Below are positions 2,139 to 44,512 of a stretch of 64,000 bases of DNA, in pieces. Below the pieces are notes generated by a model, which was not told where the DNA came from, ran no database searches, and saw only the letters and a program-made list of their open reading frames with translations. Numbering within the stretch: the stretch's first letter is position 1; each line of letters starts with the position of its first letter. The translations under genes were made by a program, and so were the position numbers. The stretch is from Shigella phage ESh36, in the sequence record ON528746; one strand, given 5' to 3'.

Positions 2139-2417
2139 TTATTCTTTAAATCTAATCAATTTATTCATAGACTTTGAAACTTCTGCACGGACCTCATGCA
2201 GGTTTTTAAGCTGTTCAAGACGTTGCTCATAGTAAGCAATTTCATCTTCTTCAAGACAGTCCTGTGAATCTTCTTTAAGATAACGCGCATAGTCCTGGAA
2301 AGCTTTACGGACTACTTCTTGGAAGTCATCAAGACTTTGAATTTTCTTAGGAGCAACAGATACACGACGAGGGGCAGTATAATACTCATAACCAAACCCT
2401 GCGCTTAATTGAGCCAT
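2139..2417 (-). CDS. hypothetical protein (T4 vs.3 position)
   Basis: Track ORF starts at GTG; first ATG ([10 protein letters not shown]) at 2417 gives a TAATG overlap with the upstream gene, so the start was moved. Confidence 0.45.
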
Positions 2418-2683
2418 TAATATTTTTCCTCTGGTTGGAACACAGCACGACAAGCCCACATACTGGCTTCTTTGAGTTTCGTTTTAGCAATAGTTAACTG
2501 ATCGAGGCTTTCAGCATAATTCTTCGCGAATTCACAGTCTTCACAATTATCTAGTGCTTCCCAAAATTCATCGTATAAAGCGTCAAAGATAAGTCCTAAA
2601 CGAACTTCAGCATCTTTGATAGCATTCACTTTACTGATTTTATCGTCAGTATGTGGCTTATAACCTTTAATATCTTCAATCAT
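2417..2683 (-). CDS. hypothetical protein (T4 vs.4 position)
   Basis: Track start is TTG; in-frame ATG at 2683 (MIEDIKGY) is preceded by GAGGAAG Shine-Dalgarno. Confidence 0.45.
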
Positions 2684-2897
2684 ATTTGACTTCCTCACCA
2701 GTACATAAATCATATTCAACTAAACGAATAGGTTCATGAATGCCATATCCTTGAACAGAAATTTCTGTCGTAGGATAAATTCCATCAATATCACCCATGG
2801 TCCATGCTTCATTAAATTGCTGTTCGCCTGAATTACTAAACCACTCGGCGAAAGCATTTAACACATCTTTAGAACCTTCAATAATTATCTTTGCCAT
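2676..2897 (-). CDS. hypothetical protein (73 aa)
   Basis: ATG-initiated ORF tightly packed between neighbours. Confidence 0.5.
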   Translation of the reverse strand: MAKIIIEGSKDVLNAFAEWFSNSGEQQFNEAWTMGDIDGIYPTTEISVQGYGIHEPIRLVEYDLCTGEEVKYD

Positions 2898-3259
2898 TAC
2901 AAGCTCTCAGTAAAGGTACGAGCGATAACGTCGCGCTGCTGTTCCGGAGTCAGAGAGTTAAAGCGAACTGCATAACCGGATACACGGATGGTCAGCTGCG
3001 GATATTTTTCCGGATGCTTAACTGCATCTTCCAGAGTTTCACGACGCAGAACGTTAACGTTCAGGTGCTGACCACCTTCAATTTTAACGGTAGGCTGTGA
3101 TTCAATTTCAATTTCACGGGCATGCAAACCGTAGAAAATTTCTGGGTCTACAAAAGAGTCCTCTTTAAAGGTTTTAGAAACAATAATTCGTGCTTGAATA
3201 CCATCTTCAAAATAAATAGTACCTTTATGTGTGCCTTCAAGAATTTGATATGCTTTCAT
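2897..3259 (-). CDS. autonomous glycyl-radical cofactor (GrcA/YfiD-like; T4 Y06I family)
   Basis: 120 aa; C-terminal ~60 aa [61 protein letters not shown] carries the glycyl-radical motif RVSGY and matches E. coli GrcA as I recall it. Confidence 0.9.
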
Positions 3260-3265
3260 ATAACC

Positions 3266-3595
3266 TCAATTAGAAAATAAATTTATCCAAGATTGTTCTT
3301 TAATTAAAAATGGCTCAGAATCATATGCCATTAAACTTTGTGTGATTAGTCCTTTAAAAGGCCCATCAATAAATTCCATGGTAAAATATGGAATTTTATT
3401 CATTAATCTTGCATTAGGAGCAGTACACAAAACTCTGCATCCTTTGAATACACCTTTTTGTAATTTGTATTGCTTAGGATAAAATTCGCTCAAGACGTTG
3501 TTATTTGCCAAAATTTCAAAATGATTCACCAATTTATTTTTAATAGTTTTTGGTGAAAAATAAAGATATTCGAAAAGTTGCGTGTCTGTCATCAT
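3266..3595 (-). CDS. hypothetical protein (T4 vs.7 position)
   Basis: Start moved to the internal ATG (MMTDTQ) that forms an ATGA overlap with the upstream stop; the track's longer start would overlap the upstream gene by 55 nt. Confidence 0.45.
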   Translation of the reverse strand: MMTDTQLFEYLYFSPKTIKNKLVNHFEILANNNVLSEFYPKQYKLQKGVFKGCRVLCTAPNARLMNKIPYFTMEFIDGPFKGLITQSLMAYDSEPFLIKEQSWINLFSN

Positions 3596-4098
3596 TGCAT
3601 TCCAATCACAAAAAATTGAGGACGAGTAATACCGCCAATGCAGCATTTACTATTGCAGCAGTGTTGCACAGTTTCAATATGAATATCATAAATTTTATCC
3701 ATATCAGGAGATTTAACAGGCTCATCGATTATATACAAAATCCGCGAAAGCGATAAACCTCTGAACTTGCTACCTCTATTACCAACAAAACTACGGATAG
3801 AATCGGTAAATAAGCGGAATCGAATATCATCGCTAGAATAACGAGAAAATTCTTTTTTAATGTGGCCCGCAGAAATTTTAGCGTAAGCTGAAGTATTAGA
3901 AAGAACAATAACTGTTCCACCATTATACAGCCAATTAGCAGCAAAGTTAGTCACAGCAGTTGATTTACCTGATTGACGTCCACCATCTAAACGAAGTGTA
4001 CAATATTCTTTAAATAAATGTGACGAATAAGGTACATAAAATCCACTATTACAAATTTCTTCTACTCTAGCATCAGAATGGTGTGTAAAAGCATTCAT
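3592..4098 (-). CDS. small P-loop NTPase with C-terminal Cys cluster
   Basis: 168 aa; Walker A GGRQSGKST, Walker B-like ILYIIDEP, C-terminal HCCNSKCC. Confidence 0.55.
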   Translation of the reverse strand: MNAFTHHSDARVEEICNSGFYVPYSSHLFKEYCTLRLDGGRQSGKSTAVTNFAANWLYNGGTVIVLSNTSAYAKISAGHIKKEFSRYSSDDIRFRLFTDSIRSFVGNRGSKFRGLSLSRILYIIDEPVKSPDMDKIYDIHIETVQHCCNSKCCIGGITRPQFFVIGMQ

Positions 4099-4286
4099 CA
4101 GGATAGATAAGGACCAGTTAAAAATGTTCTCATTTTATTCTCTCTAAATTTGGGCCATTCCATGGCACATGAATTGTCCATTTCTGTATTTACCCATTAC
4201 CGCACTTGGGCTCGACCTTATTACAGGTTGGCGGGAATCCCTCATAGAATCATGAGGTCCAGCTTGTTCCCATATTTCTTATTTGC

Positions 4287-4760
4287 TTATTTGAATGATT
4301 TGACGTACTGAATAGAGCCTTTGCTATTCACGAAAGCGATTTTACCATTTTTGTTATACATGGTAGCAGTACGCTGATAACCATAAGTTTGTTTACCAGA
4401 TTGATAACCAACTAATGCGAAATTATCTTCACCCATTTTATTCTGCTTCGCGCGGATACGTTCATGACCATGTGCCATAAGAACCTTAGCGTCGCCAGTT
4501 GCAATGGATCTACGAGTTTTTTCATCTTCAACTGTATTAACAAAGTCGTCAAATGAATCAAATTTAGCGTGAGATTTATTATACAGTTTTCCATCTACTG
4601 CATAATTATATCCCTGTACATCCATCTCAACTTCTGTACCATCATCCAATACAGCAGTGATTTTTTGACCTTTTTTAAATTTCAAAAGATCAGTAAAAGA
4701 TTCAGCGATAATTTGAGAATTAATAGCTGCTTCAGTGATAAATTCTTGATATGTTTTCAT
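4287..4760 (-). CDS. internal-protein-like head protein with capsid targeting sequence
   Basis: 157 aa; N-terminus MKTYQEFITEA is the T4 IP capsid-targeting leader (consensus MKTYQEFIAEA) with a downstream IAE prohead-protease-type site; mature part basic. Confidence 0.6.
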   Translation of the reverse strand: MKTYQEFITEAAINSQIIAESFTDLLKFKKGQKITAVLDDGTEVEMDVQGYNYAVDGKLYNKSHAKFDSFDDFVNTVEDEKTRRSIATGDAKVLMAHGHERIRAKQNKMGEDNFALVGYQSGKQTYGYQRTATMYNKNGKIAFVNSKGSIQYVKSFK

Positions 4761-4769
4761 GTGTTTCCT

Positions 4770-5186
4770 TTAAATGTAAATAGTTTTACCGTAGTATTTA
4801 TACCAGTGTGGCTTCATTAAAATTTTTTCATCGAGTCGTTGTTGACTCAACTTAATAGCTGATTTGCATGGATTATAATCATTTTTCCATTCTGCTGAAA
4901 TATCGCTGATGTCAGGAACTTCAGTATCTTTTATACTGAACCCACGTTTTAAGCATTCCGTTATAATGTCTGATTGACGCTTTCGCAAAAATTCTAACTT
5001 ATCGTAAAAGAACGTAACATGACCAGAACCTAAAATAAACTCGGAAGATATTTTAAAATCTTTAACCCGTTTACCATTTGCCACATGTTTACGAACTATA
5101 CCAAAAACACGTGGCAATTCACGGTATTCTGCGATTAAATGTTGATCAGCAAGTTCAGATACTAAAGTCAAATTAATACGAGTCAT
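4770..5186 (-). CDS. denV: endonuclease V (pyrimidine-dimer DNA glycosylase)
   Basis: 138 aa, [17 protein letters not shown]...WYKYYGK matches T4 DenV in sequence and length. Confidence 0.9.
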
Positions 5187-5201
5187 TTTATCCCTCCAAG
5201 T

Positions 5202-5776
<575 letters not shown>

Positions 5777-6232
5777 TTAAAAGAGGCTGTTCATTATTCG
5801 GTAAAGTGAAGGACCCATCACATATTGCCACTGAGTGCGAGGAATAAGAGCAAAAGCATCCATCTCTGGAATCATAACTCCATCTTTATTTTCAAAATAG
5901 GACTCGCAATGGCAATTTCTAAACATCTCATGCTCTACCGGAATCGTATAATAAAATAACTGTAAGTCTTTATTACTGGAATATTTAAATACACCTAGGT
6001 CTTCTAGAAGGTCTGGATTATAATTGCTAAAGCCAGTCTCTTCTAAACATTCTCTTTTTGCAGCTTCCAGTGCGCTTAAGTCAGAACTTTCTACACGGCC
6101 CTTTGGAATATCCCAGCGATGTGCCATCATTCCAGGCTTACGAGAACCAGTAACCCGACCCATAAATAAATCTTTATCTTCTGTCATAAAGATAATACCA
6201 GCTGATAATGTTTTCATTTTAATTTCCTGCAT
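5777..6232 (-). CDS. nudE: Nudix hydrolase
   Basis: 151 aa with Nudix box GRVESSDLSALEAAKRECLEETGF; directly upstream of e on the minus strand as in T4. A second in-frame Met (MKTLSAG) with better SD spacing is an alternative start. Confidence 0.8.
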   Translation of the reverse strand: MQEIKMKTLSAGIIFMTEDKDLFMGRVTGSRKPGMMAHRWDIPKGRVESSDLSALEAAKRECLEETGFSNYNPDLLEDLGVFKYSSNKDLQLFYYTIPVEHEMFRNCHCESYFENKDGVMIPEMDAFALIPRTQWQYVMGPSLYRIMNSLF

Positions 6233-9588: not shown

Positions 9589-10152
9589 TTATTTACCTAG
9601 TTTACTTATTATAGCTTCTGCAGCAGCTTTTAGCTTAGATGCAGTGTTAATACGATTTTTAATTTCAGTATACGCATCGCCAAGAACATCAAGGCTATCA
9701 GAATAAACACTTACACTATTGCGTTCGCTATTTGAAATAGAACCTTTAGTTTTGCGGTCAAAATCGGTGTACACGTCTTGAAGATCGCGGGCTGCCTTCT
9801 TTGCATCATCCAATGCATCAAGAGCTTTATTCAAAGCATTAACGTATTTTTTAGTGTCGAACATATTCTTAGAAATTTTAACAGGTGCGCGTTCAGGAGT
9901 AGCTAACACAGATTTAGGAACCTGAGCGCCAGATGCCAATTTCTTAGAAATTTTGAAAAATGCTTTATTGAATTTATTTTCTTGACTCATTGTAAAAGAA
10001 CTATTATCGATGTTGTACATTTCAATAGCTTTAGCTTTCCACTTAAGAAAATCGCCGCGGTCTTTTGGGTCCAATTGGAAGAATACTTTAGTAAGATCTG
10101 CTTCAGATGGTAATTTTGCTGCTTCGGTTAAAAATTCGGCATAGGTTTTCAT
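9589..10152 (-). CDS. internal-protein-like head protein with capsid targeting sequence
   Basis: 187 aa; N-terminus MKTYAEFLTEA (IP capsid-targeting leader); followed by a rho-independent terminator. Confidence 0.6.
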   Translation of the reverse strand: MKTYAEFLTEAAKLPSEADLTKVFFQLDPKDRGDFLKWKAKAIEMYNIDNSSFTMSQENKFNKAFFKISKKLASGAQVPKSVLATPERAPVKISKNMFDTKKYVNALNKALDALDDAKKAARDLQDVYTDFDRKTKGSISNSERNSVSVYSDSLDVLGDAYTEIKNRINTASKLKAAAEAIISKLGK

Positions 10153-12902: not shown

Positions 12903-12963
12903 TAGGGTAATAGTATCACAACTAAAACCCTATGTAAACAACTTTGTGAAATTATTTTAAATC
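12903..12963 (-). promoter_or_regulatory. early-promoter/stem-loop element (PeSL-like) upstream of the small membrane ORF
   Basis: 32-bp block ATGTAAACAACTTTGTGAAATTATTTTAAATC identical to the copy at 13262-13293; inverted repeat ATAGGGT/ACCCTAT encloses the -10 TACTAT; GTTTAC -35 at an 18-nt spacing. Confidence 0.55.
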
Positions 12964-13209
12964 TTCTAATCGTTTCTTCATCTTAGAACCATTTTTAGCA
13001 ATTTCTCCTGCATCGGAGCATAATGCTAAAAGCGCTTTAACTTTAGTTTGATCTCCTTTAAAAGACGAAGGATCGACTGCAGCAGCAAGTTCTTTAATAC
13101 GAGAGAAAAGACGCTCAGCTTCAGCTAAAGCCATTCCAAGCTTTACTTCCATACCGTGGGAAGATTCAATGATAGTAGTTTTTGTAGCAAACTCTTTGAA
13201 AGTTTTCAT
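12952..13209 (-). CDS. internal-protein-like small head protein at the T4 ipI position
   Basis: 85 aa; N-terminus MKTFKEFATK resembles the IP capsid-targeting leader, with IIE site nearby; directly downstream of 57B as ipI is in T4. Confidence 0.5.
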   Translation of the reverse strand: MKTFKEFATKTTIIESSHGMEVKLGMALAEAERLFSRIKELAAAVDPSSFKGDQTKVKALLALCSDAGEIAKNGSKMKKRLEDLK

Positions 13210-42609: not shown

Positions 42610-43034
42610 TGCTTCTGATCCCTGAAACTCATGAATTAGTTCTCGAGAATGTCGAAGCACTTATTCCTGAAGCACAGGGTCGCTTTGACGAATTGTCTTC
42701 TGCTTTAAATAAAGACGATATAAATACAATTGTCGAGAATATGCTTGATGATGAAACTGATTTAGCGATTGCATTAGCTTCTATTAATGAAGATATGCCG
42801 CTAAATGAATTCATCGTTAAACATGTTTCTGCTCGTGGTGAAATTACACGTACTAAAGACCGCAAGACGCGTGAACGTAATGCATTTCAAACCACCGGGC
42901 TGTCTAAAGCAAAACGTAGACAAATTGCTCGCAAAGCTACCAAAACGAAGATTGCCAACCCAGCAGGTCAATCTCGTGCTCAGCGTAAGCGTAAAAAAGC
43001 TCTTAAACGCCGTAAAGCATTAGGATTAAGCTAA
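42609..43034 (+). CDS. 68: prohead core protein gp68
   Basis: 141 aa between 67 and 21. Confidence 0.8.
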
Positions 43035-43672
43035 TGAATGAACCCCAATTACTAATTGAAACTTGGGGTCAACCTGGCGAAATTATTGATGGTGTGCCAA
43101 TGCTTGAATCTCATGATGGAAAAGACCTCGGTTTAAAACCTGGTTTATACATCGAAGGAATATTCATGCAAGCGGAAGTCGTCAATAGAAATAAACGTCT
43201 TTATCCAAAACGCATATTAGAAAAAGCGGTAAAAGACTATATCAATGAGCAAGTTTTAACTAAACAAGCTCTCGGAGAATTAAATCATCCTCCACGCGCT
43301 AATGTTGACCCGATGCAAGCCGCTATCATTATAGAAGATATGTGGTGGAAAGGAAATGACGTATACGGACGAGCTCGTGTTATTGAAGGTGACCATGGTC
43401 CTGGAGATAAATTAGCAGCTAATATTCGTGCCGGATGGATTCCAGGAGTTTCTTCTCGTGGATTAGGTTCATTGACTGACACAAATAAAGGTTATCGTAT
43501 CGTAAACGAAGGATTCAAATTAACTGTAGGTGTTGATGCAGTATGGGGTCCAAGTGCTCCAGATGCATGGGTAACTCCTAAGGAAATTACCGAATCACAG
43601 ACGGCGGAAGCCGATACAAGTGCCGATGACGCCTATATGGCTCTCGCAGAGGCCATGAAAAAAGCGTTATAA
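43034..43672 (+). CDS. 21: prohead core scaffold protein and protease gp21
   Basis: 212 aa, T4 gp21 length and position. Confidence 0.9.
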   Translation: MNEPQLLIETWGQPGEIIDGVPMLESHDGKDLGLKPGLYIEGIFMQAEVVNRNKRLYPKRILEKAVKDYINEQVLTKQALGELNHPPRANVDPMQAAIIIEDMWWKGNDVYGRARVIEGDHGPGDKLAANIRAGWIPGVSSRGLGSLTDTNKGYRIVNEGFKLTVGVDAVWGPSAPDAWVTPKEITESQTAEADTSADDAYMALAEAMKKAL

Positions 43673-43702: not shown

Positions 43703-44512
43703 ATGCTTAAAGAACAACTGATTGCCGAAGCGCAGAAAATTGATGCTTCCGTTGCTCTTGATAGTATTTTCGAATCAGTTAATATTTCTCCGGAAGCAAA
43801 AGAAACTTTCGGCACTGTATTCGAAGCTACCGTCAAGCAGCACGCCGTTAAATTAGCTGAATCTCATATCGCTAAAATTGCTGAAAAAGCAGAAGAAGAA
43901 GTAGAAAAAAATAAAGAAGAAGCCGAAGAAAAAGCTGAGAAGAAAATTGCTGAGCAAGCTTCTAAATTCATCGACCATCTTGCAAAAGAATGGCTCGCTG
44001 AAAATAAATTAGCAGTTGATAAAGGCATCAAAGCCGAACTGTTTGAATCCATGCTAGGTGGATTAAAAGAGCTCTTTGTTGAACACAACGTTGTTGTTCC
44101 AGAAGAATCAGTTGATGTTGTAGCTGAAATGGAAGAAGAGCTGCAAGAACATAAAGAAGAATCAGCTCGTCTGTTCGAAGAACTCAATAAGCGTGACGCA
44201 TATATCAATTATGTGCAGCGTGAAGTGGCATTGAGCGAAAGTACTAAAGATCTGACTGAGTCTCAAAAAGAAAAAGTCTCTGCTCTGGTCGAAGGTATGG
44301 ATTATTCAGATGCATTCTCAAGTAAATTGAGTGCAATCGTAGAAATGGTGAAGAAATCTAATAAAGATGAAAGCACTATTACTGAGAGTATAAATACTCC
44401 TGATACTGAAGCAGCCGGACTGAATTTCGTCACTGAAGCTGTAGAAGATAAATCTGCACCTGGTGCAGAAGATATTGTAAGTGTATATGCGAAAGTCGCA
44501 TCTCGTTTCTAA
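43703..44512 (+). CDS. 22: prohead core scaffold protein gp22
   Basis: 269 aa acidic coiled-coil protein. Confidence 0.9.
   Translation: MLKEQLIAEAQKIDASVALDSIFESVNISPEAKETFGTVFEATVKQHAVKLAESHIAKIAEKAEEEVEKNKEEAEEKAEKKIAEQASKFIDHLAKEWLAENKLAVDKGIKAELFESMLGGLKELFVEHNVVVPEESVDVVAEMEEELQEHKEESARLFEELNKRDAYINYVQREVALSESTKDLTESQKEKVSALVEGMDYSDAFSSKLSAIVEMVKKSNKDESTITESINTPDTEAAGLNFVTEAVEDKSAPGAEDIVSVYAKVASRF

Follow-up and report, generated by a model that had tools for sequence, protein, structure and literature searches.

The ip4 gene behind denV in Shigella phage ESh36: an accessory cassette for a probably head-packaged internal protein with a possible anti-defence role

Introduction

In phage T4 (NC_000866), the genes from e (lysozyme) to vs.8 stand in the order e-ipIII-ipII-denV-vs.8. 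The same interval of Shigella phage ESh36 reads e-denV-ip4-vs.8, with e and denV adjacent and a single internal-protein-like gene beyond denV. What this gene encodes, whether its product travels in the phage head, how the locus came to differ from that of T4 and what the protein does in the infected cell are the questions that this arrangement raises. We have addressed them in a stretch of 64,000 nucleotides of the ESh36 genome (sequence record ON528746), hereafter referred to as the window. An original prediction, made from the nucleotide sequence, had described the ORF in question as a gene for a capsid-targeted internal protein. It had also placed T4 ipII and ipIII between denV and e, which is correct according to NC_000866, and had noted that the window departs from that order, as the coordinates confirm.

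The internal-protein repertoire of the T-even phages is attributed to Repoila et al. (1994) where that work is cited in PMC12373910 and PMC4122927. Ip1, Ip2 and Ip3 have each been matched recently to a type IV restriction enzyme. Identification of the Ip4 target would add to this picture of the counter-defence proteins that phages inject, and would be relevant to predicting the host range of T4-like therapeutic phages. Both the ip4 gene and the polymorphism of its locus are already in the literature and in databases and are not new; as they have been published, the finding of ip4 by itself adds little. What is new here are the boundaries of the ip4 cassette, a second conserved cleavage-type site, a confident structural model without fold relatives and a measurement of selection. 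Taken as a whole, we consider it likely that ip4 is an accessory cassette of the e-vs.8 interval whose product would be targeted to the head, cleaved and injected, with an anti-defence role as its most likely function.

Identity and distribution of Ip4

As predicted, the ORF spans positions 4287-4760 and comprises, according to the ORF list, 157 codons plus the stop; it lies on the minus strand, which the original prediction had left unstated. The N-terminus of the 157-aa product (MKTYQEFITEAAINS) corresponds to the anticipated MKTYQEFITEA. Over its whole length the protein matches Pfam family DUF7412 (profile positions 1-158 of 158, E 5.7e-96, 319 bits for a cutoff of 27) and PHROG 3155, 'internal virion protein' (positions 1-157 of 157, E 6e-102). 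It is 100% identical to its counterparts in phages T2, RB3, RB18 and RB33, 98% identical over 137 residues to UniProt Q38388, 'Ip4 [Enterobacteria phage K3]', and 98.7% identical to the ime09 homologue, annotated 'Ip4'. The Ip4 proteins of T-even phages grouped under these entries are the same protein, with the same length and leader and identities of 98-100%. The ORF, judged by sequence, is thus ip4, a long-catalogued accessory internal-protein gene of T-even phages encoding the precursor of the internal head protein Ip4. The labels given to PHROG 3155 and to the ime09 and K3 proteins agree with the capsid-targeted internal protein that had been foreseen.

By tblastn, Ip4 was detected in 470 of 50,697 phage records. 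Identity is at least 99% in 290 of the 470 (T2, RB3, RB18, RB33, HY03 and teqskov among them), and another 160 records, from T4-like phages of Klebsiella, Salmonella and other hosts, fall between 60 and 80%. T4 IpIII is present in 261 records and T4 IpII in 198; at the level of at least 99% identity, each of these two proteins is found in only 15-16 records, as compared to 290 for Ip4. Ip4 is hence the most widespread internal protein of the T-even group, and nearly invariant. The comparison with other T-even repertoires that the original prediction had proposed therefore makes ip4 a named and common member, and the idea that the arrangement in the window is unusual did not hold: the gene occurs in all these records, including that of T2, and the interval in which it lies is variable in general, with at least six layouts (see below).

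Beyond these relatives, an exhaustive profile search yielded three distant homologues with 34-36% identity; one of them is located, within a T4-like contig, in the stretch from the gene 1/57B region to vs/rI. When 1.8 and 5.8 billion proteins were searched with profiles, the homologues retrieved were all from T4-like phages and none was cellular.

The e-vs.8 interval and the boundaries of the ip4 cassette

The locus is delimited upstream by e (5246-5740, minus strand; an ORF with 94.5% nucleotide identity to T4 e) and downstream by a 168-aa homologue of vs.8 (3592-4098, minus strand), assigned by PHROG 1488 and by comparison with T4 vs.8. Between them, denV (endonuclease V; 4770-5186, minus strand; Pfam Pyr_excise, PHROG 1183) is followed by ip4, which starts 9 nt downstream. 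At least six layouts of the interval exist among the phages compared. The T4 layout is e-ipIII-ipII-denV; e-denV-ip4 is found in the window, in BW-1 and in ESh16; T2, KIT03 and Bas43 (phage TadeuszReichstein) carry ip4 directly after e and have no denV, whereas in the window ip4 stands behind denV; CM8 has e-denV without any internal-protein gene; ime09 has e-ip(93 aa)-denV-ip4; and the Jiaodavirus FRZ284 has e-ip4-ipIII-ip(101 aa), again without denV. In an evenly spaced sample of the 554 records matching window positions 4690-5300, the rough frequencies are one quarter to one third for the arrangement of the window, and about one fifth for e joined directly to ip4. The gene is dispensable, as it is lacking from CM8 and T4, and this pattern of presence and absence fits an accessory role.

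At its 5' side, ip4 is preceded by a 28-nt untranslated segment (4761-4788, minus strand) shared with other internal-protein genes, which includes a Shine-Dalgarno sequence AGGA at 4766-4769 and overlaps the last codons and the stop of denV. Taken together, these 28 nt and the first 32 nt of ip4 have 92% identity with the 5' ends of T4 ipII and ipIII, and the sequence of the segment also precedes ip4 in BW-1, ime09, KIT03, T2 and Bas43. Further upstream, an early-promoter and stem-loop element of the PeSL type (GTTTAC ... GAATTGTGA-loop-TCACAATT) is situated between e and denV, at 5187-5245 on the minus strand. An element of this type precedes ipIII, ipII and denV in T4 and ip4 in T2, KIT03 and Bas43. 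In these last three phages about 88 nt upstream of ip4, comprising the GTTTAC early-promoter box, the GAATTGTGA/TCACAATT stem-loop, the ribosome-binding site AGGAAAC and leader codons, are essentially the T4 sequence upstream of ipIII. At the 3' side, the cassette ends with 15 nt (4272-4286, minus strand): from about 4275 downward the sequence is that of the flank downstream of T4 denV, so that what follows 15 nt past the ip4 stop is what follows the denV stop in T4. The blastn boundaries place window 3001-4275 opposite positions 2162-3443 of the T4 locus.

As the approximately 88 nt upstream of ip4 in phages of the T2 type are essentially those upstream of T4 ipIII, ip4 and ipIII/ipII are alternative cassettes of one shuffling-prone locus. 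It has been proposed that PeSL units mediate modular shuffling in T4-like genomes, with an explicit link to the internal-protein locus (PMC4122927). The case that the original prediction had set against itself, namely an ipII or ipIII orthologue at its usual T4 place, is right as to the place, ip4 occupying the ipIII slot in T2, KIT03 and Bas43, but not as to the protein, the mature regions having no similarity.

By the same comparisons, denV is itself a movable unit, which in the window has landed between the PeSL element and the ip4 ribosome-binding site. The window denV is a diverged allele, only 73-74% identical in nucleotides to that of T4, while its flanks are 91-95% and the neighbouring genes 91-97% identical. 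T2 is classically more UV-sensitive, and the absence of denV from T2, KIT03 and Bas43 fits this property of T2. Two further details of the region are of note: the last four codons of denV (4770-5186) are built from the shared internal-protein upstream sequence, and in the element at 5187-5245 the GTTTAC box overlaps the stem-loop, the element also matching the T4 ipIII-ipII intergenic region in inverted orientation.

The ip4 gene is probably expressed from transcripts that start at the PeSL promoter upstream of denV. A generic scan of positions 4000-5850 gave no sigma-70 promoter or terminator above chance, and within that scan no terminator-like site appeared between ip4 and vs.8. We also considered an exact match to the T4-type late promoter -10 box, TATAAATA, at 4795-4802 on the minus strand, 35 nt upstream of the ip4 ATG and within the denV codons for Y-K-Y. 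This box is present in BW-1 and absent at that place from ime09 and from T4 denV, where the same amino acids are specified by other codons, and we do not retain it as a dedicated late promoter for ip4, only as a weak candidate. Across the window as a whole the motif is enriched, occurring 23 times as compared to about 10 expected. Two tandem copies (5754-5761 and 5767-5774, minus strand) are found immediately upstream of e, an arrangement shared with T4.

The vs.8 gene at the downstream edge is shortened (4099-4240, minus strand, around 4108). The T4 protein has 219 aa; relative to T4, the 5' part of the gene carries a stop and has lost 9 nt in both the window and BW-1. One more nucleotide is missing in the window (CCC to CC), a difference that could be either genuine or a sequencing error; it shifts the start to MNAF (168 aa) and leaves a remnant ORF of 33 codons. 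The vs.8 homologue (3592-4098) also contains a Walker A-like motif, GGRQSGKS, and weakly resembles the N-terminal ATPase part of large terminases, with a PHROG 2 hit at E 3.8e-6 and subthreshold Pfam hits to Terminase_6N and AAA.

The Ip4 leader and its predicted processing

Codons 1-10 of ip4 (4731-4760, minus strand) encode a capsid targeting sequence, MKTYQEFITE, which ends in the I-x-E cleavage motif ITE/A (the slash marks the predicted cut). The leader is, as had been proposed, of the T4 internal-protein type. It shares nine of ten residues with MKTYQEFIAE of T4 IPII and IPIII, position 9 being the sole difference from IPIII, its coding DNA belongs to the 5' end that is 92% identical to those of ipII and ipIII, and it conforms to the capsid-targeting pattern M-K-T-Y/F-x-E-F-x-x-E with Y4 and F7 retained. 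It has been shown for IPIII that the first 10 residues are sufficient for packaging, even of foreign proteins, and that targeting is sensitive to residues 4 and 7, and cleavage to residues 8 and 10 (PMC9026906). In Ip4 the residues with these roles (Y4, F7, I8 and E10) are unchanged.

The motif cleaved by gp21 (I/L-x-E followed by a small residue) occurs twice in Ip4, as ITE/A at residues 8-11 and as IAE/S at residues 18-21, and ITE and IAE are the only [LIVM]-x-E motifs near the N-terminus. The second one closes a variable linker, AAINSQIIAE (codons 11-20; 4701-4730, minus strand). An alignment of 13 sequences of the closer family members has M1, K2, F7, E10 and E20 invariant; when distant homologues are included (15 sequences), M1 remains invariant, and F7, E10 and E20 are each kept in at least 90%. 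The distant homologues carry leaders of the MNFxxFLNE/S type, with a second LNE/S in two of the three. Use of the conserved cleavage-type site at Glu20 by the protease is a prediction from sequence. T4 IPI, like Ip4 a leader-bearing protein and one that is injected, has a 19-residue propeptide that ends in ITE/A, the same residues as positions 8-11 of Ip4, and Ip4 may likewise lose about 20 residues. IPI differs in its locus, ipI lying between trna.4 and 57B, and in its mature sequence, which is unrelated to that of Ip4.

The partners expected for this pathway are encoded in the window. Gene 21 (43034-43672, plus strand; Pfam Peptidase_S77, E 1.5e-111) specifies the prohead protease, which would cut the leader, and gene 22 (43703-44512, plus strand; Pfam T4_CASP, E 4.8e-90) the scaffolding core protein, to which the leader would bind; gp23 is encoded alongside them. 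The predicted mature domain (residues 21-157; 4290-4700, minus strand) has 137 aa, 15.5 kDa and a pI of 9.3, the mature T4 proteins IPI*, IPII* and IPIII* ranging from 9.0 to 9.65. By size, charge and position in the e-vs.8 interval, Ip4 fits a small basic mature protein of the variable internal-protein locus. A search of all six frames of the 64-kb window for the leader-type pattern retrieved only three ORFs, at 4287-4760, 9589-10152 and 12952-13209, and all three are situated in known internal-protein regions of T-even phages. The searchable literature yielded neither virion proteomics nor N-terminal sequence data for Ip4.

Given the retained leader residues, the conserved Glu20 site and the presence of genes 21 and 22 in the window, there is good, if inferential, support for the packaging, processing and injection of Ip4. 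The identity of the protein and its packaging, the latter predicted from the leader, can together be considered nearly certain. The precursor would be made in the infected cell and taken by its 10-residue targeting sequence into the gp22 scaffolding core of the prohead. There, the gp21 protease would cut after Glu10 (ITE/A) and probably again after Glu20 (IAE/S), and the resulting basic protein of 137-147 residues would stay in the head with the DNA and enter the next host cell along with it.

Structure and selection of the mature domain

An AlphaFold2 model of mature Ip4, obtained with the 20-residue propeptide trimmed and three distant homologues added, is a single domain with a pLDDT of 93.6 and a pTM of 0.88. 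Full-length Ip4 with 13 close homologues gave a pLDDT of 50, which is unusable. The good model has two strands at the N-terminus, three helices, and four strands at the C-terminus. A Foldseek search against the PDB gave no match at E<=0.001, and in the PDB comparison the model shares no fold with the known GmrSD inhibitors. The sole neighbour in a library of viral structures is Q38388, the Ip4 of K3. BLASTP of the mature part against the T4 internal proteins was not significant for any of them, the best E-values being 4.0 for IPII, 15 for IPIII and 81 for IPI. A weak PDB sequence hit to the dsRNA-binding domain of RNA helicase A (E 0.064) was discarded; no family member has a Pfam dsrm match, and no structural match bore out the alpha-beta-beta-beta-alpha fold of such domains.

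We also compared the coding sequence of ip4 with those of related phages. Nonsynonymous and synonymous differences number 0 and 21 with T2, 1 and 23 with KIT03, and 1 and 26 with Bas43. Within Tequatrovirus dS is 0.26-0.33, dN 0-0.003 and dN/dS approximately 0-0.03, the same range as for lysozyme e. Ip4 is under very strong purifying selection in this genus, and a constraint of this kind is more in keeping with a conserved partner than with a rapid arms race.

Possible function of Ip4

Ip1, Ip2 and Ip3 are GmrSD inhibitors, each directed at a different GmrSD (PMC12373910), and Bas37_0260, a leader-bearing protein, inhibits McrBC (HIDEN-SEQ preprint, bioRxiv 10.1101/2025.11.20.689424). Wherever a function has been assigned within the class, it is the inhibition of type IV restriction. 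As these proteins all act in this way, blocking of a host defence is the most likely function of Ip4 as well, and the analogy with Ip1, Ip2, Ip3 and Bas37_0260 makes such a role tenable, if tentative.

How far the analogy extends depends on the protein compared. T4 IPII and IPIII (the GmrSD inhibitors Ip2 and Ip3) resemble Ip4 in a nearly identical targeting sequence, in the ribosome-binding site and upstream element, in the e-vs.8 locus and in a basic mature protein; they differ in a mature part without similarity to that of Ip4, in their far greater variability and in their GmrSD inhibition, which has not been reported as reproducible for ip4. IPI* inhibits the GmrSD of E. coli CT596, and PDB searches gave no structural match between it and Ip4. 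Bas37_0260 is comparable in that it too is an internal protein, has just the N-terminal signal in common with the others and blocks type IV restriction; it is encoded at the ipI locus, and the likeness is drawn from its description only.

The original prediction had put Ip4 forward as an anti-restriction candidate, with the action of a T4 internal protein against GmrSD as its example. The analogy is a fair one, since Ip1-3 do inhibit GmrSD; inhibition of GmrSD by Ip4 itself is not supported. No reproducible inhibition was seen with the genes ip4-10 when a panel of GmrSD variants was assayed (PMC12373910, Supplementary Fig. 9); the construct that Silas et al. call 'ip4' is equated with the ip4 of the window by name only. 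Furthermore, T2, whose Ip4 is identical to that of the window, is restricted by the GmrSD of ECOR21 and ECOR17 (PMC12373910). The panel result, the restriction of T2 and the purifying selection together weaken the GmrSD idea.

A mainly structural or DNA-associated role, in which Ip4 would be a basic filler that aids core assembly or neutralises or organises the packaged DNA and would have no specific host target, is in our opinion unlikely, although several observations agree with it. The mature protein has a pI of 9.3; T4 internal proteins, present at about 360 copies per head, were for a long time taken to be DNA-binding, and in the absence of IPIII heads assemble more slowly and bursts are smaller (PMC9026906); dN/dS near zero suggests a constant partner; and the GmrSD panel was negative. 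Yet ip4 is present or absent among close relatives, CM8 having no internal-protein gene at all at this locus, and as T4 and CM8 are devoid of ip4 it cannot be required for head building. Moreover, Ip4 is modelled as a compact, specific domain (pLDDT 93.6) and not as a simple basic tail, and every member of the class with an assigned function is a defence inhibitor.

No better placed, and likewise improbable, is an injected host-takeover effector that would act on a conserved housekeeping factor (for example in transcription, termination or RNA metabolism) and not on a variable defence. The weakest alternative, that the leader is a mere recombination scar common to neighbouring cassettes and Ip4 an ordinary, unpackaged cytoplasmic early protein, might draw on the leader and 28 nt upstream being homology blocks where cassettes appear to have been exchanged, and on the fusion of ip4 9 nt behind denV, with which it is probably co-transcribed, but we regard it as very improbable: the leader is conserved as protein even in distant homologues with unrelated DNA, E10 and E20 are invariant in the closer members and kept in at least 90% overall, and the first 10 residues of IPIII, from which the Ip4 leader differs only at position 9, package foreign proteins (PMC9026906).

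Returning to the anti-defence role, Ip4 would bind and block, once in the new host, one nuclease-type defence that attacks modified T-even DNA, and this defence would be outside those tested so far. In its specific form we hold this proposal only tentatively: Ip4 may be an injected inhibitor, of a new fold, of a defence other than GmrSD of the tested class or the known targets of internal proteins, or alternatively may act on a conserved host factor. If the proposal is true, the constancy of Ip4 as compared to Ip2 and Ip3 would reflect a target that cannot easily change.

Other internal-protein-like ORFs and a related public record

Besides ip4, two ORFs of the window carry leaders of this type. 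The one at 9589-10152 (minus strand) encodes 187 aa, with a perfect capsid targeting leader (MKTYAEFLTE/AA) and a mature pI of 9.5. PHROG 2280, to which the protein is assigned, is labelled 'unknown function', and the BW-1 and ime09 records call the protein 'hypothetical protein'; its sequence suggests an internal protein overlooked by annotation pipelines. The other, located at the ipI locus (12952-13209, minus strand), encodes 85 aa; its leader is IPI-like (MKTFKEFATKTTIIE|S, the bar marking the predicted cut), and upstream of it stands the same promoter/stem-loop as in front of T4 ipI. It has no Pfam match and is clearly homologous to the 93-aa internal protein that ime09 carries between e and denV; one internal-protein family therefore moves between two internal-protein loci.

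Klebsiella phage FRZ284 (L004) has at 1760-2254 a gene labelled 'putative sulfurtransferase protein'. The last residues of its product, NRARRVIETMRTGTWAAYQGK, are similar to those of T4 lysozyme e, and the gene has 65.7% DNA identity over 492 nt to e of the window. By these similarities, the label looks like a misannotation in the public record.
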